Virus record (IMG/VR): IMGVR_UViG_3300003962_000013
Coordinates: 50,785 to 114,784 of that record
Length of the DNA: 64,000 bases
Reading direction: 5' to 3' (one strand)
From: a virus
Lineage: Duplodnaviria; Caudoviricetes
The notes under the pieces are model-generated. The model saw only the letters and a list, made by a program, of their open reading frames with translations. It made no database searches and was not told the DNA's origin. How positions within the stretch are numbered: position 1 is the first letter of the stretch; every line of letters starts with the position of its first letter. This document shows positions 4,442-64,000 of this stretch, one piece after another. A program made the position numbers and the translations under genes.

Positions 4442-5026
4442 TTATTTTAATTGATTTGATTTATTTCTATTTCCTATTTGATTAGAACCATATTGTTCTG
4501 CTATTTCTGTTGTTTTAAAACGAGGCATTAAATTAGTATAGTGAAAACACTTTTGTTGTTCTTCTAATTTAGTTAAATCAAATTTTGAACAAGGTTTAAT
4601 ATGATCTATTTCCCATATTTTTCCATAATTATTCCAATCCATTTTATTGATGAATTGTTGTTCTAAATATAATTTAAATTCAATTACTGAGCATCCTAAT
4701 AATGTTATAATAGATTTTGATTTTGAATTGGAATTAATTGCTTTAAAAAATCTAGATCTTAGATTATCAGAAATTCTAAATTGGATATTATTTTTTCTTT
4801 TATTGGATTTATAAATATTACTATATATAGTTTTTCTTTTTCTATTTATAATATTATATTTTTTAAAATATAATTTTTGTTGTTCTTTAATACTATTTTT
4901 ATATTGTTTAGTACATAATTTACATCTAGGTTCTTTCCCATCTGGAGAGTTTTTGTTATTTGAAAAATAATTATTCTCTTGTGGGATTTTACATTTATTA
5001 CAAATTTTTGTATATAAATATTGCAT
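4442..5026 (-). CDS. HNH homing endonuclease
   Basis: CxxC/CKxC N-terminus; WEIDHIKPC…CFHYTNL core; own ATATTTATAA motif upstream. Confidence 0.8.
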   Translation of the reverse strand: MQYLYTKICNKCKIPQENNYFSNNKNSPDGKEPRCKLCTKQYKNSIKEQQKLYFKKYNIINRKRKTIYSNIYKSNKRKNNIQFRISDNLRSRFFKAINSNSKSKSIITLLGCSVIEFKLYLEQQFINKMDWNNYGKIWEIDHIKPCSKFDLTKLEEQQKCFHYTNLMPRFKTTEIAEQYGSNQIGNRNKSNQLK

Positions 5027-5060
5027 TTTTTATTTTATTATAAATATTAAAAAGGTTAAA

Positions 5061-5086
5061 AAAGCTACCCATGTTAATGAGTAGCT
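5061..5086 (-). terminator. Intrinsic terminator after phoH
   Basis: AGCTAC(T)CAT-TAAC-ATG(G)GTAGCT hairpin followed by a T-run on the minus strand. Confidence 0.6.
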
Positions 5087-5134
5087 ATTATTATATTAAC
5101 TTTGCAGAATTAATATAATTAATTAAACCAATGT

Positions 5135-5818
5135 TTAATCTCGAAATTCATCATATACTTTTAAAATGTCTTCAACTATTTCATGTCGATGATTTTTCTT
5201 TAAAGTAACAATTCTAACACCTTTGATTCTTTCTTCTAAACGTGGAAAAAAACCAATACCTGATTCTTTTTTGCTTTTTAAATCTACTTGAGCTAAATCA
5301 CCACAAAATACTATTTTACCGCCTTTACCTAAACGACCTAACATCATTTCAGTTTGTGGTCCTGTAATATTTTGACATTCATCTACTATAACAAAACAAT
5401 TAGGAAATGTTCTACCTCTCATAAATGCAAATGGTACAATTTCAATCTGATTTTCTTGAACCATTTTATCTATTTTTTCTTTATCATATAATAAATATAA
5501 ATTAGAATATATTGGAGCTAGCCAAGGGTCCATTTTTTCTTTTAAATCACCTGGGAGGAAACCAATTTCTTCTTTTGATACAGTTGGACGCGTAATAACA
5601 ATTTTATCCATTTCTTTTTTGAAAACCATATCTAAAGCAATTTGACATGCCACCAATGTTTTTCCTGAGCCAGCCATCCCTTTAAGTAATGTAACAGGAT
5701 TTTCCAATATAATTTGTTTGGCTTCTTTTTGTTCTTCGTTAAGTGATAACTTGAACTTTATTTCTCCTTTTGGTTTTCGTTTTTCTTTGAAAACATCTTC
5801 ATTATTGTTTTGAGACAT
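5135..5818 (-). CDS. phoH: PhoH-family ATPase
   Basis: GMAGSGKT Walker A; IGFLPGDLKEKMDPW; FMRGRTF; VDECQN; GDLAQVD. Confidence 0.95.
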   Translation of the reverse strand: MSQNNNEDVFKEKRKPKGEIKFKLSLNEEQKEAKQIILENPVTLLKGMAGSGKTLVACQIALDMVFKKEMDKIVITRPTVSKEEIGFLPGDLKEKMDPWLAPIYSNLYLLYDKEKIDKMVQENQIEIVPFAFMRGRTFPNCFVIVDECQNITGPQTEMMLGRLGKGGKIVFCGDLAQVDLKSKKESGIGFFPRLEERIKGVRIVTLKKNHRHEIVEDILKVYDEFRD

Positions 5819-49527: not shown

Positions 49528-51364
49528 CCCTACCGGAGATATCTGTTTGTGGATACTTCACTTCAAAAATCATAGGATCTATTGATGGATAAATCACATT
49601 ATTTTTAGTTGCTCCAGATATATCATAAGTATATTGAGAATATCCTAATGAAGTTCCTGTTTTGTTTGTTATAGTAATATTTTTAACTGTTTGAACTCCT
49701 TCTACTTTATCTAATAAAATATATAATTCTCTCAATATTATTGGCTGGTTGATTTGCCATTTATCTACTGAAAAATATGATTGAAGTGTAGTTATACAAC
49801 GAGTTAAAACATCATTATTATTATAATTAGGTAAAACAATTATATCAAAATCAACTCCTATATTGATTATAAATCCATCCTTAATATTAATAGCATCATT
49901 AATCATTCTATATTGAGAAAGATATGTAGATAAATTTTGTTTTAAAGCTTGAGATGCTGTATTAAGTTTGTTATTAATATCTTTTGTTAAAACATATAAA
50001 TCTAAGATTCCATTTGATTCACCTGGTGATATAGATTGAATCTTGGTAGGTTCAATATAAGCTTTAGCTATATTCCCGTATTTAGCAGGCATACTTAATG
50101 CTCTTACTAAATAATCATCTTGAGTTACGTTTCTAAGTTGGGATGAAAAGTTTGAAGAAGCATTTTGTCTAATTTCTTCGATTGTGTCTCCATCTCCTCC
50201 TCCACTAGCAGCTTCAGGATTTGTAACTGCTAAAGAAGTATAAATACTGTTTGCTGTAACTGTTACCAAATTAGTGTTTAAAAAAGTTGGAGTTGCGTTT
50301 AATCTAGTTAATGTATTAGCTGCTACATTAGATGAAATACCACCTCCTGTTAAATATCTAAATGTTAATGTAGTATTAGAAGGAGCAACTCCATATGTTT
50401 TAGTAAATAAAAAATTAGAAGGTGTAAATGCTGTTGTTAATTTGGTTTGTTTAAATGGTAATCCTATTCCTACATTATCAGGATTTGGAATTATAACTTC
50501 ATCAGAATCTGAGGTTGTACCAGCTCCAAATTGAATTTGTAATGTAGTAGAATTTCTTAATCTAGTAGCAAATCTATATTGAACTTTTTTTAATTTTAAT
50601 AAATACGGAGTATCACTATTATATTGGGATAGATTTGGGTCATTAATGTTGGTATTTTTGATTGAATCATAAACCATTTCTTGACCCAAATAATCCACTT
50701 CATACCAGTTATTTCCTTCACTATCTGTACAATCTAAAATTCCTATTAAATTTGAAGCATTTATTTCAACTGTACTAAATTTAGTAGGAGAACCAAATGA
50801 AAATGTTGTTGTATTTATAGTTGCTGATATAGCACTACGAGATTTTTTTAGTAAAAAATATGTTGGATTTCCTCCTGATACTTCATATATTGTGACTTCC
50901 GTAGGATCAATTGAACTTGATACAGAAAAATCTACAGGATCTGAAATTAAGAAAGATACTCCATTAGTTGTAGTAACTGTTGAATTTCCATTTATAAATA
51001 AAGTATAATCAAAATCTGGTATATATGTTGAACCAGATAATTTTGCAGGAAGTTTCTGATAAAAATCTATATTAGTTGTTGCTACTCCAGTTACATTTGG
51101 TTTATAACCAAACATATATGCTAATTCAAATAAATTATTCGATTGACGAGCAAATTGTAAATAATTCTCTTGTACTTGATTATCTAAATAAAAAGATAAA
51201 ACATCACCCACATACGCTGCCATTTCCATAAACATCATACCAGGAGATGCAGGACTAAAGTCATTATATGTAGTTGGGAAATAAGTTTTAGCATAATCAA
51301 CTAGATTAGCTTTAAACTCATTAAAATCTTTATTTATGTATTTTATATTTTTATTAGCAGCCAT
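49514..51364 (-). CDS. Baseplate wedge subunit (T4 gp6 / gpJ-like)
   Basis: DFSPASPGMMFMEMAAYVGDVLSFYLD; GGGDGDTIEEIR; RNVTQDDY. Confidence 0.9.
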   Translation of the reverse strand: MAANKNIKYINKDFNEFKANLVDYAKTYFPTTYNDFSPASPGMMFMEMAAYVGDVLSFYLDNQVQENYLQFARQSNNLFELAYMFGYKPNVTGVATTNIDFYQKLPAKLSGSTYIPDFDYTLFINGNSTVTTTNGVSFLISDPVDFSVSSSIDPTEVTIYEVSGGNPTYFLLKKSRSAISATINTTTFSFGSPTKFSTVEINASNLIGILDCTDSEGNNWYEVDYLGQEMVYDSIKNTNINDPNLSQYNSDTPYLLKLKKVQYRFATRLRNSTTLQIQFGAGTTSDSDEVIIPNPDNVGIGLPFKQTKLTTAFTPSNFLFTKTYGVAPSNTTLTFRYLTGGGISSNVAANTLTRLNATPTFLNTNLVTVTANSIYTSLAVTNPEAASGGGDGDTIEEIRQNASSNFSSQLRNVTQDDYLVRALSMPAKYGNIAKAYIEPTKIQSISPGESNGILDLYVLTKDINNKLNTASQALKQNLSTYLSQYRMINDAINIKDGFIINIGVDFDIIVLPNYNNNDVLTRCITTLQSYFSVDKWQINQPIILRELYILLDKVEGVQTVKNITITNKTGTSLGYSQYTYDISGATKNNVIYPSIDPMIFEVKYPQTDISGRVVSL

Positions 51365-52139: not shown

Positions 52140-52157
52140 TTGTTATAAATATTATAA

Positions 52158-58465: not shown

Positions 58466-58546
58466 ATCTTTTATTTTTTAATTTGCTTAAACATATGTTA
58501 AAAAATCTTGTAATCCAAATAAATTATCAGAAATTTAGTTAATTTC

Positions 58547-59056
58547 TTAAAACATTAAATATGGTTGCCAACTTTCAACATCCTTATGTGATTTATAAAT
58601 AAAATATATAGGATGTGGTTTTGATGGTCTAAATAACAATTTCATTCCTGCTTGTTCTGGAGTTCTATCTCCTTTTTTAGCATTACATGAAAAACAACAT
58701 GTTATTAAATTTTCCCAGGTATTAGATCCTCCTTTAGATTTAGGAATAATATGGTCAACAGTTAAATTTTTAGTAGATGGACAATAAGCACATTTGTGTT
58801 CATCTCTTTTAAATATATTTTCTCTTGATAAAACTACTTTTCTATAAGGAATATTTACATATTTAATTAAACGAATAACTGATGGTTTAACATATTTATT
58901 ATTTACTTTATATAAACCATCTTGTTCAACTATTTCTGCTTTTCCTTTATAAATTAATTTATATGCTTTTTTGAATGTAGTTACATTTACAGGTAAATAG
59001 TCTGAATTCAATACTAATATCTTAGTTAAATCCTTATTTATTCTATGTATCCGCAT
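58547..59056 (-). CDS. HNH endonuclease (McrA-like)
   Basis: LVLNSDY; IFKRDEHKCAYC; TVDHIIPKSKGG; CNAKKGDRTP. Confidence 0.9.
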   Translation of the reverse strand: MRIHRINKDLTKILVLNSDYLPVNVTTFKKAYKLIYKGKAEIVEQDGLYKVNNKYVKPSVIRLIKYVNIPYRKVVLSRENIFKRDEHKCAYCPSTKNLTVDHIIPKSKGGSNTWENLITCCFSCNAKKGDRTPEQAGMKLLFRPSKPHPIYFIYKSHKDVESWQPYLMF

Positions 59057-59072
59057 ATTATTTGTTTTTTAG

Positions 59073-59153
59073 TACTCCCTGCGAGAGTCGAACTCGCACG
59101 CCGTGGCAATGAGTCTTAAGCTCATCGTGTACTACCAGTTTCACCAAGGGAGC
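59073..59153 (-). tRNA. tRNA-Leu(TAA)
   Basis: Anticodon arm ATGAG-CTTAAGA-CTCAT; long variable arm. Confidence 0.9.
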
Positions 59154-59171
59154 ATTTATTATAAATATTTG

Positions 59172-59247
59172 TACCCAACGTGGGACTCGAACCCACAAAA
59201 AATTAGTTCCTAAGACTAACGCGTACTACCAGTTTCGCCAGTTGGGC
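59172..59247 (-). tRNA. tRNA-Leu(TAG)
   Basis: TTAGT-CTTAGGA-ACTAA; variable region is only T6. Confidence 0.85.
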
Positions 59248-59367
59248 ATTTTACACCCCACGCAAGGGGTGAGTGGGTTATTGCTCCTAGTTGTTACTTT
59301 TCACTCTTTTACATTTGCGCATGTATCGTTATTTTTCACTCAAAGCCGCATACCACTATAGCTATAG

Positions 59368-59440
59368 TACACCATATAGGATTTGAACCTATACCAAGAA
59401 GTTCGTAGCCTCCCATTCTATCCAGTTAAACTAACGGTGT
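59368..59440 (-). tRNA. tRNA-Arg(ACG)
   Basis: GGAGG-CTACGAA-CTTCT. Confidence 0.9.
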
Positions 59441-59446
59441 ATGTTG

Positions 59447-59521
59447 GGTGATAAGTGAGGATCGAACTCACAACCTCTTGTCTCACAAACAAGCGCTCTT
59501 ACCAATTGAGCTATTAACACC
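59447..59521 (-). tRNA. tRNA-His(GTG)
   Basis: CTTGT-TTGTGAG-ACAAG; encoded G-1:C73. Confidence 0.9.
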
Positions 59522-59526
59522 ATATG

Positions 59527-59600
59527 TTTTCCCCGGTGGATTCGAACCAAACCATCGTAATGTTCAAAGCATTACATCCTGCCAATTAGACGAGGGGAAA
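59527..59600 (-). tRNA. tRNA-Gln(TTG)
   Basis: TAATG-CTTTGAA-CATTA; bulged T stem. Confidence 0.85.
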
Positions 59601-59605
59601 ATATG

Positions 59606-59678
59606 AGGAGATAATTGGAATTGAACCAATCTAAACGGTTTTTGCAGACCGCCACTTTAGCCTCTCAGACATATCTCC
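59606..59678 (-). tRNA. tRNA-Cys(GCA)
   Basis: GCGGT-CTGCAAAA-ACCGT (8-nt loop as read); U73. Confidence 0.8.
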
Positions 59679-59683
59679 TTATG

Positions 59684-59756
59684 TACACTCTACCGGAATC
59701 GAACCGGTGACCTTGATGATATAAGCATCCTGCTCCCCCAATTGAGCTAAGAGTGT
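59684..59756 (-). tRNA. tRNA-Ile(TAT)
   Basis: GATG-CTTATAT-CATC. Confidence 0.88.
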
Positions 59757-59759
59757 ATT

Positions 59760-59835
59760 TGGAGCTTCCTACCGGATTCGAACCGATCGTATCTTGATTA
59801 CAAGTCAAGCGCAGCGCCATCTCTGCTTAAGAAGC
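59760..59835 (-). tRNA. tRNA-Thr(TGT)
   Basis: CTTGA-CTTGTAA-TCAAG; encoded CCA. Confidence 0.9.
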
Positions 59836-59840
59836 TTATG

Positions 59841-59914
59841 CGATCCATACCAGATTTGAACTGGTGATCTCCTACGTGACAGGCAGGCAGGGACGACCTC
59901 TCCCCTAATGGACC
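59841..59914 (-). tRNA. tRNA-Asp(GTC)
   Basis: CCTGC-CTGTCAC-GTAGG. Confidence 0.9.
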
Positions 59915-59923
59915 AATTTTATG

Positions 59924-60004
59924 AGCGGGTGAAAGGAATCGAACCTTCATCCCTAGTTTGGAAGACTAGTATAATATACTTTCGTGCCACTATACGACAC
60001 CCGC
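59924..60004 (-). tRNA. tRNA-Gly(TCC)
   Basis: CTAGT-CTTCCAA-ACTAG; enlarged D loop. Confidence 0.85.
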
Positions 60005-60007
60005 TTA

Positions 60008-60081
60008 TGGTACCTCTAGATAGAGTCGAACTATCTCGAATTGGATGTAAACCAATCATACTACCCTTATATGTTAGAGGC
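60008..60081 (-). tRNA. tRNA-Val(TAC)
   Basis: ATTGG-TTTACAT-CCAAT; encoded CCA. Confidence 0.88.
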
Positions 60082-60666
60082 TTATTTTTTATTATTTTTT
60101 CCTTTAAATGTCAAAGTTTGAGAATGGCAATTTGGACATAATAATCTTAAATTAGTTAAAATGTTATTATTTCTATTTCCATCTATGTGATCTAAATCTA
60201 ATATTATTTTTTCTCCCATCCACTCATTTATCCCACAAATTAAACATTTATATTCAAATATTTTTTCTTTTAATAAATAGGTTTTAATATTATTATTAAT
60301 ACTCCCATAATAAGGATTAGTATATATTATTTTTCCTTCTATTAATTGTTTAATATTTAATTTTCTATTCTTTAATTTATATACTTTATTCTCTATTAAA
60401 AAATTTTTAATAAAAATATTACTAACATTATATTTAGAAGAAATACATTTAATAGATTTACCTTCATTATATAAATTTAAAATATCTCCCCCATTTTTTA
60501 ATAATAAATCTTTATATTTACTATTAATTCTCTTACTTTTAAATTTCCCTGTGTATTTTTTTAAGTAATACCCCACTGTTCCTTTAGAAATATTTAATAT
60601 TTCACATATTTGACTTATCGAATATCCTTCTTCTCTTAATTGATAAGTTTTAAATCTTTTATTCAT
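60082..60666 (-). CDS. HNH homing endonuclease with N-terminal HTH
   Basis: CLICG…LDLDHIDGNRNNN…LLCPNCHSQT. Confidence 0.88.
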   Translation of the reverse strand: MNKRFKTYQLREEGYSISQICEILNISKGTVGYYLKKYTGKFKSKRINSKYKDLLLKNGGDILNLYNEGKSIKCISSKYNVSNIFIKNFLIENKVYKLKNRKLNIKQLIEGKIIYTNPYYGSINNNIKTYLLKEKIFEYKCLICGINEWMGEKIILDLDHIDGNRNNNILTNLRLLCPNCHSQTLTFKGKNNKK

Positions 60667-60720
60667 ATTATTTTTTTATCATAAATATCGAACTAATATG
60701 TAAAATTCGAATTGATTACG

Positions 60721-60791
60721 TCTAGATAGCTGGGATCGAACCAGCCACAAAATGATCCCAAATCATTCCCGACACCATGTGCGTTATCTAG
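60721..60791 (-). tRNA. tRNA-Pro(TGG)
   Basis: AATGA-TTTGGGA-TCATT; short atypical D arm. Confidence 0.8.
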
Positions 60792-60795
60792 TTAT

Positions 60796-60871
60796 TGGTG
60801 GATCCTATCGGAATCGAACCGATATCACTTGTTCTTCAGACAAGCGCATTGACCAACTTTGCTAAAGATCC
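60796..60871 (-). tRNA. tRNA-Phe(GAA)
   Basis: CTTGT-CTGAAGA-ACAAG; encoded CCA. Confidence 0.92.
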
Positions 60872-60877
60872 ATTTTG

Positions 60878-60961
60878 TGGGAGCAGAAGGATTCGAACCT
60901 ACTACCTCTGCGGGTTACCTGATTTACAGTCAAGCGCCTAACCAATTCGAGCGTTACTCCC
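60878..60961 (-). tRNA. tRNA-Tyr(GTA)
   Basis: CTTGA-CTGTAAA-TCAGG; long variable arm. Confidence 0.9.
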
Positions 60962-61394
60962 TTTTTAATCCATATTCTTTTATCAATTGATATACTCTAT
61001 TATAATTATCTCCTCCACTCCTTAATTTAACCCTACTTAAAATTTCAGATATATTACCTCCTAGTTTTATACTTTCAATCAATTCTTTATCTTTTATCGA
61101 TGGATTTTTCTTTTTTCTATTATTTTTATTTTTCCAAGTTATAGTTTGAGAATGACAATTTGGACAAAGCCATCTTAAATTTTCTCTTGTATTATTTAAT
61201 TTATCCCCATTTATATGATCTAAATCTAATTCTATTTTTATTCCATTATATTCATCTTTTATACCACAAATACACTTATATTCTATTAAATTGGAATTTT
61301 TTAATTTATGTCTAAAAGCAGGAACAAATTTAATAATTAATTCTCCATTTAATATTTTTTCCAAATTATCTTTAATATTTTGTCTTTCTTTCAT
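60954..61394 (-). CDS. HNH homing endonuclease
   Basis: LDLDHINGDKLNN…WLCPNCHSQT; the stop codon lies inside tRNA-Tyr. Confidence 0.88.
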   Translation of the reverse strand: MKERQNIKDNLEKILNGELIIKFVPAFRHKLKNSNLIEYKCICGIKDEYNGIKIELDLDHINGDKLNNTRENLRWLCPNCHSQTITWKNKNNRKKKNPSIKDKELIESIKLGGNISEILSRVKLRSGGDNYNRVYQLIKEYGLKRE

Positions 61395-61446
61395 TTTATT
61401 ATAAATATTTTAAAATGTCTGAAAAACAATGAAACAAATATTTTTG

Positions 61447-61519
61447 CGCTTCGTGTGGGAGTCGAACCCACATCCATCTGATTAACAGTCAGCCGCTCTA
61501 CCTTCTGAGCTTCCGAAGC
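61447..61519 (-). tRNA. tRNA-Asn(GTT)
   Basis: CTGA-CTGTTAA-TCAG. Confidence 0.9.
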
Positions 61520-61529
61520 TTATATTTTG

Positions 61530-61601
61530 TGTCCCCGAGGGGAATCGAACCCCTACCCGTATATTAAAAGTATACTGCGCGTGCCTTCTCGCCACGAGGA
61601 C
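61530..61601 (-). tRNA. tRNA-Lys(TTT)
   Basis: GTATA-CTTTTAA-TATAC. Confidence 0.88.
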
Positions 61602-61655
61602 ATAATCTTATCGTCCTCGATTTTTTTACTTGTTTCCATTTTTCATATTTTTTAG

Positions 61656-61728
61656 TCATCATAGTTGGAATTGAACCAACGGCCTTTTGCTTATCAGACA
61701 AATGCTCTACCAACTGAGCTATATGATG
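61656..61728 (-). tRNA. tRNA-Ile(GAT)
   Basis: TTTGT-CTGATAA-GCAAA. Confidence 0.92.
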
Positions 61729-61779
61729 TGGTGGAATTCATTTTTTAAGGAAAATAGATATCTCTAAACTAAACCTTTG

Positions 61780-61849
61780 TGGACTGCGTGGGAATCGAAC
61801 CCAAATAAAAACTTTGCAAAAGTTTCCGCCTGCCTTCGGCATCGCGCCC
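61780..61849 (-). tRNA. tRNA-Ala(TGC)
   Basis: AAACT-TTTGCAA-AGTTT; G3:U70; bulged acceptor stem. Confidence 0.8.
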
Positions 61850-61863
61850 ATATTATTTTATTG

Positions 61864-61950
61864 CGGAAGTCAAGAGAATCGAACTCTCACCAGTATTACC
61901 TGGAATAACTTAGCAGGTTATCGTAACAAACCAATATTTACCTAACTTCC
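61864..61950 (-). tRNA. tRNA-Ser(GCT)
   Basis: ATAAC-CTGCTAA-GTTAT; long variable arm. Confidence 0.9.
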
Positions 61951-61958
61951 AATCTTTG

Positions 61959-62041
61959 CGGAAGACCAGAGACTCGAACTCTGACGCCTTTTACAGCTAC
62001 TAGTTTTCAAGACTAGCTCCTCATCCAGCCGGATGCCTTCC
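61959..62041 (-). tRNA. tRNA-Ser(TGA)
   Basis: CTAGT-CTTGAAA-ACTAG; long variable arm. Confidence 0.9.
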
Positions 62042-62046
62042 TTTTG

Positions 62047-62120
62047 CACGCCCTGTAGGGATCGAACCTACGACCTATGGTTTTGGAGACCAGTGCTCTA
62101 CCAAACTGAGCTAAAGACGC
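62047..62120 (-). tRNA. tRNA-Trp(CCA)
   Basis: TGGT-CTCCAAA-ACCA. Confidence 0.92.
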
Positions 62121-62130
62121 GTATGTAAAT

Positions 62131-62169
62131 AAAACAAAAAATCCGAACCTCTTTTATCTGGTTCGGATT
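62131..62169 (-). terminator. Intrinsic terminator (attenuator) directly upstream of the tRNA array
   Basis: AATCCGAACC-AGATAAAAGA-GGTTCGGATT followed by a T-rich tract, ending about 10 nt before tRNA-Trp. Confidence 0.85.
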
Positions 62170-62216
62170 AATCATTTAATTATATCTTAAATTAAACTAC
62201 ATTTAATACCGAACCA
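62159..62216 (-). promoter_or_regulatory. Predicted antiterminator
   Basis: TGGTTCGG (62216-62209, inside the leader ORF) pairs with CCGAACCA (62166-62159, terminator 5' arm); inner ATTAA/TTAAT and TTTAATT/AATTAAA helices. Confidence 0.7.
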
Positions 62217-62311
62217 CAATTTATACCCCATCCCTTATTATCGACAATCGATAAACGATACGTCGCCTGAAGGCAAGGACTAAATTGATTATGTATTAAA
62301 TTTGTTTTCAT
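62192..62311 (-). CDS. Putative attenuator leader peptide (39 aa)
   Basis: Read by hand: MKTNLIHNQFSPCLQATYRLSIVDNKGWGINCGSVLNVV*; A-rich start context like the other genes. Confidence 0.72.
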   Translation of the reverse strand: MKTNLIHNQFSPCLQATYRLSIVDNKGWGINCGSVLNVV

Positions 62312-62449
62312 TTTTATTTTTTAATTATTAAGATGATATGAATGGTCCTTGTACTATATCCATTCTTTTATAAGGAATATCAATTCTTATTATACATATT
62401 GTAAATTTCTGAAAAACTACAATTTTATTATCTTTTTTTCTTATACTTT

Positions 62450-62478
62450 AATATACGATGGAAATTTTGAATTTCCAA
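62450..62478 (-). promoter_or_regulatory. Sigma70-like promoter for the leader and tRNA array
   Basis: TTGGAA-N17-TATATT; an ATATGTATAA motif also lies at 62390..62399. Confidence 0.65.
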
Positions 62479-62630
62479 ATTTTCTTTAAAAAAAGTTTAG
62501 GAGATATTAAAAACGTCTTTTTAACAGAGCTCCAAAGTCATATCTTGTTCTGCTCAACTTGATTCACTAAAAAAGATCTCATTCATTTGGGCTTCATTTT
62601 TAGCAGTCGAGAGGCCTGATAAGATATTTG

Positions 62631-62704
62631 TAGCGCTGAGTTGGATTCGAACCAACGATCTCAAGCTTATGAGGCTTGCGAGATGACCACTTCTCTACCC
62701 CGCT
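62631..62704 (-). tRNA. tRNA-Met(CAT)
   Basis: CAAGC-CTCATAA-GCTTG; initiator-like 5' half; imperfect acceptor stem. Confidence 0.75.
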
Positions 62705-63108
62705 ATTTTTAAATGAAAAGGTTTATAATGTTCTTTTTTGTGACAATTAGAACATAATACTATACATTTTTCAATTTCTTTTAAAACAATTTCTTTATCT
62801 ATTCTTCTTTTCAACATTTCAGATATTCCGCCTTCTTTTTCATTAGGATCTAAATGGTGAAATTCTAAACATGATGGATGATTTTCTTCACATCTTAAAC
62901 ATTTTAAAGAATTTTTGTATTCATCATACCAAACTCTATGTTTTTGATAATTTTCCTTATATATTTCAATATTGTTTATATAATGAATTTTTGAAGAATT
63001 TCTAACACATTTTTTACAATAAGAAGACAACCCAGTTTTTTTATTTTTAGAATTTTTATTAAACTCTTTTTCTTCTTTTTCTATTTTACACTTCGAACAT
63101 ATTTTCAT
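62695..63108 (-). CDS. HNH homing endonuclease
   Basis: KICSKC; CLRC…LEFHHLDP…CIVLCSNCHKKEH; the stop codon lies inside tRNA-Met. Confidence 0.88.
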   Translation of the reverse strand: MKICSKCKIEKEEKEFNKNSKNKKTGLSSYCKKCVRNSSKIHYINNIEIYKENYQKHRVWYDEYKNSLKCLRCEENHPSCLEFHHLDPNEKEGGISEMLKRRIDKEIVLKEIEKCIVLCSNCHKKEHYKPFHLKIAG

Positions 63109-63148
63109 ACTTATATTTTATTATAAATATATAAAGAGTTCGAAAAAG

Positions 63149-63532
63149 TGGAGCCGGAGGGAATCGAACCCTCGTTTGGATAAGTGTTGAATGAAATTCA
63201 TTTACATGCTTAGTTAATTTTTCTAAATTAACAAAATAAAAGATTTGATATATGTGAGAAACCCATCTTTAAACAACTTGGTCTTGGAATCATTTTAACC
63301 GAGCTCCAACCTGCGACCCGAAATTTTGTATCCTTCTGTTTCTAGGTTGGATATAACCCAAATTGATTAAGCAGCTACTGCTAAATCAGCACCAACGAAA
63401 GACATTGCGTCTTCGAAAGTAAAAGTAGACTTTTCGTCATTTAATTTGTATATAGGTTATTTACGTGTTTCCAATACTAACACGACATGCATCTCAAAGA
63501 ACTTAAGTATCCAGCAAAAGCCTGGCGACCCC
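63149..63532 (-). ncRNA. ssrA: tmRNA
   Basis: 5' GGGGTCG pairs with 3' CGGCTCC-A (G3:U); T arm GAGGG-TTCGATT-CCCTC; tag ORF 63438-63367 (A)DEKSTFTFEDAMSFVGADLAVAA*. Confidence 0.93.
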
Positions 63533-63843
63533 ATTAAATTGTGTCTATGGACTCCCTCTGTCGTAGGTGATGGGCGCCCATACTCAATAATCCATCTAAT
63601 TCTTCCTTTGAAACAGTCAATGGATTGACGTAAGACTTACTAAGTTATCCTCGCTTACAGGTACCTCGATGTGAAGTATTTCATCCCTGTCAATTGAAGA
63701 CTAAGAGGAAGTAAGTTAACTTTATCTGTATAGTTTAGCACTTTATTTGGACTTAATTCTAGGGAAAATTGACCTAAAATTTTATGGAGTTTCTCCTAAC
63801 CAATATAAAGGTTCTTACACCCTTAGCTTTACCTTAGTAATTG

Positions 63844-63916
63844 TACTCCCGACGAGAATCGAACTCGTGTTTACTGTGCGAAAGACAGTCGTCCTTAACC
63901 CCTAGACGACGGGAGC
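63844..63916 (-). tRNA. tRNA-Glu(TTC)
   Basis: ACTGT-CTTTCGC-ACAGT. Confidence 0.92.
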
Positions 63917-63922
63917 ATTAAT

Positions 63923-64000
63923 TTATTGAGTATGGGCGCCCATCACCTACGACAGAGGGAGTCCATAGACACAATTTAATGGGGTCGCCAGGCTTTTGCT
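63923..64000. repeat. Perfect inverted copy of 63513..63590 (at least 78 bp, runs off the window)
   Basis: The reverse complement matches base for base and includes the first 20 nt of tmRNA. Confidence 0.95.

Follow-up and report, generated by a model that had tools for sequence, protein, structure and literature searches.

A putative translation-coupled attenuator preceding 21 tRNA genes in a phage tRNA array

Organization of the locus

Many large phages carry tRNA genes, and to our knowledge essentially nothing has been established about the control of their expression. We analyzed a stretch of 64,000 nucleotides (IMG/VR record IMGVR_UViG_3300003962_000013, positions 50,785 to 114,784), referred to here as the window, which makes up the final 64 kb of a viral contig of 114.8 kb with ~28% G+C. 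Genes of the window are located on the minus strand. The element of interest is a short module of promoter-like sites, a 39-codon leader open reading frame (ORF) and an intrinsic terminator, placed directly before a block of 21 tRNA genes. An earlier note on this DNA had proposed a promoter at 62450-62478, an ORF at 62311-62192 and a terminator hairpin ahead of the first tRNA, and all three were recovered at these positions. The features of the module and its surroundings are as follows.

62632 to 63916, minus strand: genes 5' of the putative switch, on the same strand as the module (tRNA-Met, an ORF, transfer-messenger RNA (tmRNA) and tRNA-Glu)
63843 to 63916, minus strand: tRNA-Glu, 5' of the leader
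63146 to 63532, minus strand: tmRNA (Rfam, 77 bits), between tRNA-Glu and the ORF at 62695-63108
62632 to 62704, minus strand: tRNA-Met, 5' of the leader
62450 to 62478, minus strand: promoter-like site P1 (TTGGAA, 17 nt, TATATT), with a Bacteroidota-like TTTG just 5'
62387 to 62404, minus strand: promoter-like motif P2, with a TATAAT box at 62394-62389, conserved in the related contigs L004 and L006
62340 to 62365, minus strand: conserved hairpin in the 5' untranslated region, with a 6-bp stem and a 14-nt loop
62192 to 62311, minus strand: leader ORF, 39 codons plus stop
62239 to 62269, minus strand: 31-nt block within the ORF (codons 15-25), identical in all DNA homologues, forming a hairpin or 6-bp palindrome
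62203 to 62216, minus strand: candidate antiterminator strand (strand A), with core TGGTTCGG at 62216-62209 (codons 32-35), complementary to the terminator 5' arm
62140 to 62169, minus strand: terminator hairpin, with a 10-bp stem (62169-62160 with 62149-62140) and a 10-nt loop
62127 to 62141, minus strand: U-rich tract of the terminator, ending 6 nt 5' of tRNA-Trp
59072 to 62120, minus strand: putatively controlled block of 21 tRNA genes, from Trp to Leu-taa, interspersed with two HNH ORFs

The tRNA-Trp gene, which starts at 62120, was taken in the earlier note as the first tRNA of the array. It does head the distal block of 21 tRNA genes, but tRNA-Glu, the tmRNA and tRNA-Met are located upstream. 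Thus, only the last 21 tRNAs would be gated, and the idea that the module gates the array holds for these genes and not for the array as a whole, since the upstream genes would be outside its control. ARAGORN detects 18 of the distal tRNAs, while those for Tyr, Pro and Gly were added from Rfam matches and inspection. The order of the distal tRNA genes is the same in the window, L004 and L006.

The exact form of P1 occurs once in the window (0.05 occurrences expected), and motifs of its type are found in relatives immediately 5' of tRNAs, as well as 5' of the leader of a distant relative, L040. P2 is the probable proximal start, near 62383-62374. RNA-library contigs of two studies bridge the terminator, spanning 62064-62295 and 62042-62374, and RNA-library contigs end at 62374 (X16) and 62383 (X5). 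Such contigs show neither RNA ends nor RNA levels; they would fit transcription from a start near the TATAAT box into tRNA-Trp. The run that yielded the 62042-62374 contig has deep cover on the tmRNA and no cover over 62414-63120, the latter not being readable as absence of RNA. An untranslated stretch of ~70 nt separates the promoter-like sites from the leader ORF. Its hairpin is retained in L006, where an inner G-C pair is replaced by A-U and one A-U pair is gone on both strands.

Composition and evolution of the leader ORF

The start context of the leader ORF is A-rich, as in other genes of the phage, with no Shine-Dalgarno sequence. The earlier note had drawn attention to the occurrence of 19 different residues within the first 28 codons. 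This count is correct and unusual: a diversity this high is found in only 0.04% of the 28-residue windows drawn from proteins of this phage, and in 0.1% of open shuffles of the leader ORF. All 20 amino acids are present in the leaders of L006, L040 and P0002, the last being a homologue found as a protein (see below). The leaders are also rich in rare codons, with codon adaptation values of 0.35-0.47, compared to 0.70-0.77 for genes (0.47 versus 0.76 in the window); at most 0.7% of gene windows have values as low as those of the leaders. Runs of one repeated regulatory codon are absent from the window leader, which has instead one or two codons per downstream tRNA species.

The ORF stays open at 39-40 codons across four lineages, and it has been called as a gene in public data (P0001 and P0002). 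Translation is suggested by a comparison of the leaders of two distant relatives, L039 and L067, which reveals five synonymous and no non-synonymous changes in codons 4-20, where 16% synonymous changes are expected by chance. Codons 21-28, which contain the pairing strand, display the reverse pattern, with no synonymous and five non-synonymous changes. Thus, the 5' part of the leader appears to evolve as translated sequence and the 3' part as an RNA strand. The 31-nt block at codons 15-25 could be a pause or anti-antiterminator element.

Leader codons and the tRNA array

Each of the 21 downstream tRNA species, including both Leu, both Ser and both Ile tRNAs, has at least one of its codons among codons 2-28 of the window leader. 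Under strict wobble rules, 18 of the 21 species are engaged. Gene windows of the same length engage a mean of 12.8 species and a maximum of 19, and none of 16,428 such windows equals the leader; under a uniform-codon null, the probability of this roster is 1e-5. The rosters of relatives are similarly complete (20/20 in L006, 20/21 in L004 and 17/19 in L040), and no gene window equals these either.

The roster also follows the position of the module within the array. Codons that are read only by tRNAs upstream of the module are absent from the putative sensing zone, and are present only in the 3' zone that would be masked by a ribosome at the end of the ORF. The window leader has no Glu codons, no internal Met codons and neither AGA nor AGG in codons 2-28. 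The tRNAs 5' of the putative switch, whose codons are relevant here, differ between clades.

Window clade: Glu, Arg-tct
L040: Leu-taa, Thr, Gly
L039 group: Leu-taa, Thr, Gly, Ser-tga, Arg-tct

Taken one by one, the P-values for the lack of upstream-only codons are modest, at 0.006-0.08; the direction is the same in three clades with different splits. Specific codon choices agree with these splits. With Arg-acg as the only downstream Arg tRNA, arginine is encoded by CGT or CGC; AGA is found in L040 alone, whose Arg-tct is located downstream. In leaders with Leu-taa on the upstream side, leucine is encoded by CTT or CTG. A downstream Ile-tat goes together with the use of ATA, and the leader of L040, a contig without Ile-tat, contains no ATA.

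Related modules and distant analogues

Pattern scans identified the module in three further viral contigs (L004, L005 and L006), where it is placed between tRNA-Met and tRNA-Trp, with promoter, ORF, terminator and tRNA-Trp in this order. The modules of L004 and L005 are ~92% identical to that of the window. L006 is more divergent, with ~79% identity over the module and 68-72% identity between neighbouring proteins; its ORF is also 39 codons long despite in-frame length changes, with synonymous differences at codons 3 and 5. Among 1.84 billion proteins, a profile search identified one new homologue of 40 residues, P0002, on a contig with the same layout; this member was compared as a protein. 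A metagenome scan with the invariant 31-nt block returned the L006 contig only, and peptide-pattern scans of viral contigs found no additional leaders.

A DNA search of the phage record collection gave matches at the level of tRNAs only and no close cultured relative. The nearest cultured phage by protein similarity is Flavobacterium phage immuto (53% identity), which has no tRNA array at the syntenic place. Kinship with Flavobacterium phages agrees with promoters of the TTTG/TAnnTT type and with A-rich gene starts that lack Shine-Dalgarno sequences. With a neighbouring protein as query, at least 391 related contigs were found. In most relatives, tRNA-Trp directly follows tRNA-Cys, and the homologous leader is therefore confined to a small clade.

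Analogous modules are nevertheless found in distant relatives, in a search at every fetched locus for a hairpin and T tract just 5' of a tRNA. L040 contains a P1-type promoter, a 31-codon ORF and a terminator, followed by tRNA-Phe. L039, L041, L067, L094 and L096 contain a 28-codon ORF and a distinct terminator, followed by tRNA-Lys or tRNA-Phe. The terminators of these analogues are located 30-36 nt 5' of a tRNA, and the leaders of L040 and of the L039 group cannot be aligned with that of the window. The earlier note had named conservation in related phages as a check on its proposal; the ORF and terminator are indeed present in L004, L005 and L006, and an analogous layout in the distant relatives.

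Terminator and antiterminator pairing

The terminator hairpin alone has a folding energy of -15.1 kcal/mol (z = -4.0), and the whole leader folds better than shuffled sequences (z = -3.9). The terminator is kept in L006, with one compensatory change (U-A to C-G) and two wobble changes. The complementarity of codons 32-35 to the terminator 5' arm, previously noticed in the sequence, was borne out, with TGGTTCGG at 62216-62209 as its core; the pairing extends to 62203. This is the top ORF-to-arm duplex of the window (-13.5 kcal/mol, P = 0.04 versus shuffles), and the helix between strand A and the 5' arm is also selected by RNAalifold. Seven of its eight pairs are kept in three sequences, one of them through replacement of G-C by A-U on both strands: in L006, the strand in the ORF has G to A exactly where the terminator 5' arm has C to T.

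The same arrangement is found in all seven modules from three clades, where the best duplex between ORF and 5' arm falls in the final codons of the ORF. Compared to shuffles, this duplex has a P-value of 0.001 or lower in four modules and of 0.04 in the window and L004. Taken by itself, the window clade gives marginal significance only. When nascent RNAs that end 5' of the 3' arm are folded, the antiterminator probability is 0.63-1.0 in all modules, with or without an upstream ribosome, and drops to 0 when the A site of the ribosome is within the last ~9 sense codons. With the stop codon in the A site, the ribosome masks about half of the helix in the window clade, where the antiterminator probability is ~0.5. 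Thus, the earlier proposal that a ribosome at the stop masks the antiterminator is better stated for the late sense codons, since at the stop only the edge of the strand is covered in the window clade. Classical attenuators have an upstream 1:2 (pause or anti-antiterminator) hairpin that brings about termination of an untranslated leader. In the window, the minimum-energy fold of the full-length leader has strand A paired with codons 8-12; nascent folds without a ribosome still give the antiterminator.

Proposed mechanism

Based on the anatomy of the module, its conservation, the complementarity between ORF and terminator, and the match of codons to tRNAs, we consider it rather likely that the module is a translation-coupled transcription attenuator of the distal 21-tRNA block, in which the leader is a roster of the tRNAs controlled and provides feedback on decoding capacity. 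Transcription would begin at the promoter-like sites at 62478-62387, and the 39-codon leader would be translated as RNA polymerase proceeds. A ribosome that keeps pace would be on the last ~9 codons as the terminator emerges, masking strand A (62216-62203). The hairpin at 62169-62140 could then form, and transcription would end 6 nt 5' of tRNA-Trp. A ribosome that lags at any earlier codon would leave strand A free to pair with the terminator 5' arm once this is made, so that no terminator hairpin forms and the tRNA genes are transcribed. The leader would achieve this by listing one or two codons, mostly rare, for each downstream tRNA species and none for the upstream ones. Shortage of any listed tRNA would thus raise transcription, while accumulation would shut it off, resulting in negative feedback. 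The earlier note had seen in the leader a sensor of all amino acids. It does sample nearly all tRNAs; however, it looks like a list of the tRNAs encoded downstream of the module, a pattern that points to feedback and not to general sensing of amino acids.

Several points weigh against this interpretation, and the first concern energetics. Equilibrium favours the terminator by 3.9 kcal/mol in the window and by 7.5 kcal/mol in L006, and the window terminator stays favoured with a ribosome anywhere beyond codon 4. In the complete RNA, the terminator also wins in L067, while in L004, L040 and L039 the antiterminator is at least as stable as the terminator. Switch behaviour of a thermodynamic kind is therefore seen only in L004, L040 and L039, and equilibrium folds with a ribosome mask are inconsistent across homologues. 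Since the terminator wins at equilibrium in the window, the decision there would have to be kinetic. The ribosome-dependent switch put forward in the earlier note draws comparative support from the conserved layout, the analogues and the match of leader codons to the downstream tRNAs, but not from the equilibrium folds of the window. In addition, read-through is predicted for an untranslated leader, unlike in the trp operon. Covariation in the window clade amounts to one compensatory pair per helix among three sequences, a level equalled by 157 and 145 of 500 shuffles, and in L006 the A:B duplex does not outperform shuffles (P = 0.66).

Other points concern the roster and its distribution. Three of the 21 matches in the window (CCT, CTT and GTC) rely on four-way U34 wobble. 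ACA at codon 2 of L039 and L067 is an exception to the split rule, AGT is used although arrays of the L039/L067 type hold no matching phage tRNA, and a few downstream tRNAs in relatives lack a leader codon. Many relatives with tRNA arrays are without any such module, and promoter-like motifs inside the window array (61413-61396 and 59170-59154) could bypass the switch. Finally, translation of the leader, the efficiency of termination, the coupling between ribosome and polymerase, and the regulatory response are steps that we infer from sequence.

An alternative is that the leader is a cis-regulatory RNA that senses a ligand, protein or RNA through the same pair of terminator and antiterminator, with the ORF being incidental or secondary. 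Such an RNA would account for the conservation of the ~70-nt untranslated part, which is as high as that of the ORF and includes a covarying hairpin, and for the identity of the 31-nt ORF block at every third codon position. It would also fit a long-range helix that RNAalifold predicts between the untranslated part and codons 25-28, as well as the folding of the entire leader relative to shuffles (z = -3.9). We nevertheless regard this explanation as unlikely. No Rfam family matches at E-values up to 1, the reading frame is preserved through in-frame length changes, and the L040 and L039 analogues keep an ORF though their 5' parts are short (~20 nt) and unstructured. The synonymous-only changes, the tRNA roster and its match to the array split would be left unexplained.

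Slightly less probable again is that the ORF is simply a small-protein gene, with a promoter of its own and followed by a leaky terminator, which happens to be situated in the tRNA array, the tRNAs being made by passive read-through or from other promoters. Conservation of the ORF and its prediction as a gene in public data (P0001 and P0002) agree with this, and these arrays commonly contain small ORFs and homing-nuclease genes, as well as promoter-like motifs. However, it is the layout that is conserved between clades and not the peptide sequence, the codon usage is extreme for a gene, and the 3' codons evolve to preserve pairing with the terminator arm rather than residues. Moreover, real genes never reach the coverage of downstream tRNAs seen in the leader, and the terminator and tRNA-Trp are not separated by a gap large enough for a promoter.

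It is quite improbable that a fixed terminator is overcome, with no involvement of the ORF, by polymerase that was modified upstream, as in processive antitermination through boxA/nut or put elements. A 46-nt stretch (62545-62500), unchanged in L006, contains a hairpin and a run that we take to be boxA-like, and a presumably boxA-like run also follows the terminator in relatives. However, the promoter-like sites and the ends of the RNA contigs are located 3' of this stretch, and both the complementarity between ORF and terminator arm and the roster would be unexplained.

Each of these three explanations accounts for part of the anatomy, and none for the roster or its agreement with the array split. 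If the attenuator reading is extended to phage tRNA arrays in general, these might be under codon-by-codon feedback, in which a roster of one rare codon per tRNA would be rewritten upon reshuffling of the array. The phage would thereby gauge how well the infected cell decodes with exactly those tRNAs that it is able to supply, and would top these up on demand; the circuit might respond also to cleavage or depletion of tRNAs by host defences. We advance this broader proposal tentatively, as a serious possibility.

Comparison with known attenuation systems

Attenuators of amino-acid operons include trpL, hisL, leuL, thrL and pheL, as well as the multivalent leader of ilvGMEDA. The phage module resembles trp/his-type attenuators in the placement of a promoter, a short leader ORF and an intrinsic terminator directly before the regulated genes. 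It also shares with them a leader whose 3' part pairs with the terminator 5' arm, with the position of the ribosome deciding, as proposed here, which helix forms. The differences lie in what would be regulated and sensed. The phage module would regulate tRNA genes instead of genes for enzymes, and its leader devotes roughly one codon to each of 21 tRNA species, whereas the classical leaders repeat one to three amino acids. The sensed molecule would itself be the product, tRNA, providing direct feedback. Furthermore, the phage module is encoded by a phage of a Bacteroidota host. No match to the Rfam leader families (Trp_leader, His_leader, Leu_leader, Thr_leader and Phe_leader) or to the T-box was found in the region 58500-64000 at E-values up to 1; L040 scores 18.8 bits with Phe_leader, compared to a threshold of 55.

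In attenuators of the pheST type, a leader peptide controls an aminoacyl-tRNA synthetase operon. Such systems likewise attenuate a component of the translation apparatus through a leader peptide; unlike the phage module, they sense one amino acid and control a protein gene. T-box riboswitches are similar in that tRNA supply determines the choice between terminator and antiterminator 5' of translation-related genes. However, they bind uncharged tRNA directly, through a specifier codon and the T-box bulge, with no ribosome involved and with one tRNA being sensed. In E. coli, ribosome stalling at various positions of the toiL upstream ORF raises the expression of the downstream topAI-yjhQ genes (PMC12121999). 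That system differs from the phage module in its Rho-dependent termination, its response to antibiotics and its codons, which are not matched to the regulated genes (PMC12121999).

We found no description of leader-peptide control of tRNA genes in the literature, in a search that was incomplete and is no proof of absence. From known leader-peptide attenuation, the module would differ in its tRNA-gene target, in a pan-codon leader without repeats and in the identity of product and sensed molecule. If the proposed mechanism is correct, it would be the first case of attenuation in which the products of tRNA genes regulate these same genes, and multivalent attenuation would be extended from three amino acids to about twenty. 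The module would represent a compact natural sensor of decoding capacity. It would also make it testable whether phage tRNAs offset a mismatch in codon usage, the loss of host tRNAs, or both. The agreement between leader codons and array split is a prediction-rich pattern that can be checked in any phage with a tRNA array.

Additional features of the arrays

The sequence between tRNA-Met and the leader promoter contains the conserved element mentioned above.

62500 to 62545, minus strand: 46-nt element 3' of tRNA-Met, identical in the divergent L006, with a GCTCTGTTAAAAA run and an A/U-rich hairpin

The GCTCTGTTAAAAA run resembles a boxA. Part of this element (62533-62500) was considered as a terminator and dropped, as its U run is 5 nt off the stem and it folds no better than shuffles (z = -1.0). 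In L004 (~5000-5170, plus strand), an extra 56-codon ORF lies between the conserved element and the leader promoter. It is also found in L005, and is absent from the window and L006.

Four ORFs are located within or beside the tRNA array.

62695 to 63108, minus strand: putative HNH ORF overlapping the 5' end of tRNA-Met by 10 nt, with Cys/His motifs only and no Pfam match
60954 to 61394, minus strand: ORF
60082 to 60666, minus strand: ORF
58547 to 59056, minus strand: ORF

The other three match HNH endonuclease families of Pfam. The tmRNA is also present in L006 and L004, and its tag peptide was read by ARAGORN in the L006 copy.

Two of the distal tRNAs have unusual features. For tRNA-Cys (59605-59678, minus strand), ARAGORN gives a four-base anticodon, gcaa, with an extra A in the anticodon loop compared to L004 and L006, which could reflect an 8-nt loop or a shifted stem. 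The tRNA-Gly(tcc) at 59930-59999 (minus strand) is detected by Rfam only (32.7 bits), and has an apparent insertion in the D-arm region.

P2 belongs to a motif family around ATATTTATAATAA, which has 11 sites in the window, compared to 1.3 expected, 10 of them on the coding strand. These include sites at 59154-59170, 61396-61413 and 52140-52157 (minus strand), plus eight others. Some sites stop 1-2 nt 5' of a start codon, and one fills the 17-nt spacer separating two tRNA-Leu genes. This family may represent a class of phage promoters.

The tRNA arrays of distant relatives contain GOLLD RNA on the plus strand, with Rfam scores of 270-279 bits.

L039, 4690 to 5114, plus strand: GOLLD RNA (Rfam)
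L040, 3856 to 4270, plus strand: GOLLD RNA (Rfam)
L067, 4661 to 5075, plus strand: GOLLD RNA (Rfam)
L094, 4151 to 4565, plus strand: GOLLD RNA (Rfam)
L096, 2693 to 3108, plus strand: GOLLD RNA (Rfam)

GOLLD RNA is located directly 5' of the leader ORF in L039, L067, L094 and L096, while tRNA-Thr and tRNA-Gly intervene in L040. A conserved GTTCTTTGACAT run, which we assume to be boxA-like, is found between the leader terminator and the first tRNA in L039 (~5360-5385) and L040 (~4665-4690), on the plus strand in both. In the array of L041 (plus strand), ARAGORN calls a tRNA whose tta anticodon would decode TAA, a stop codon.

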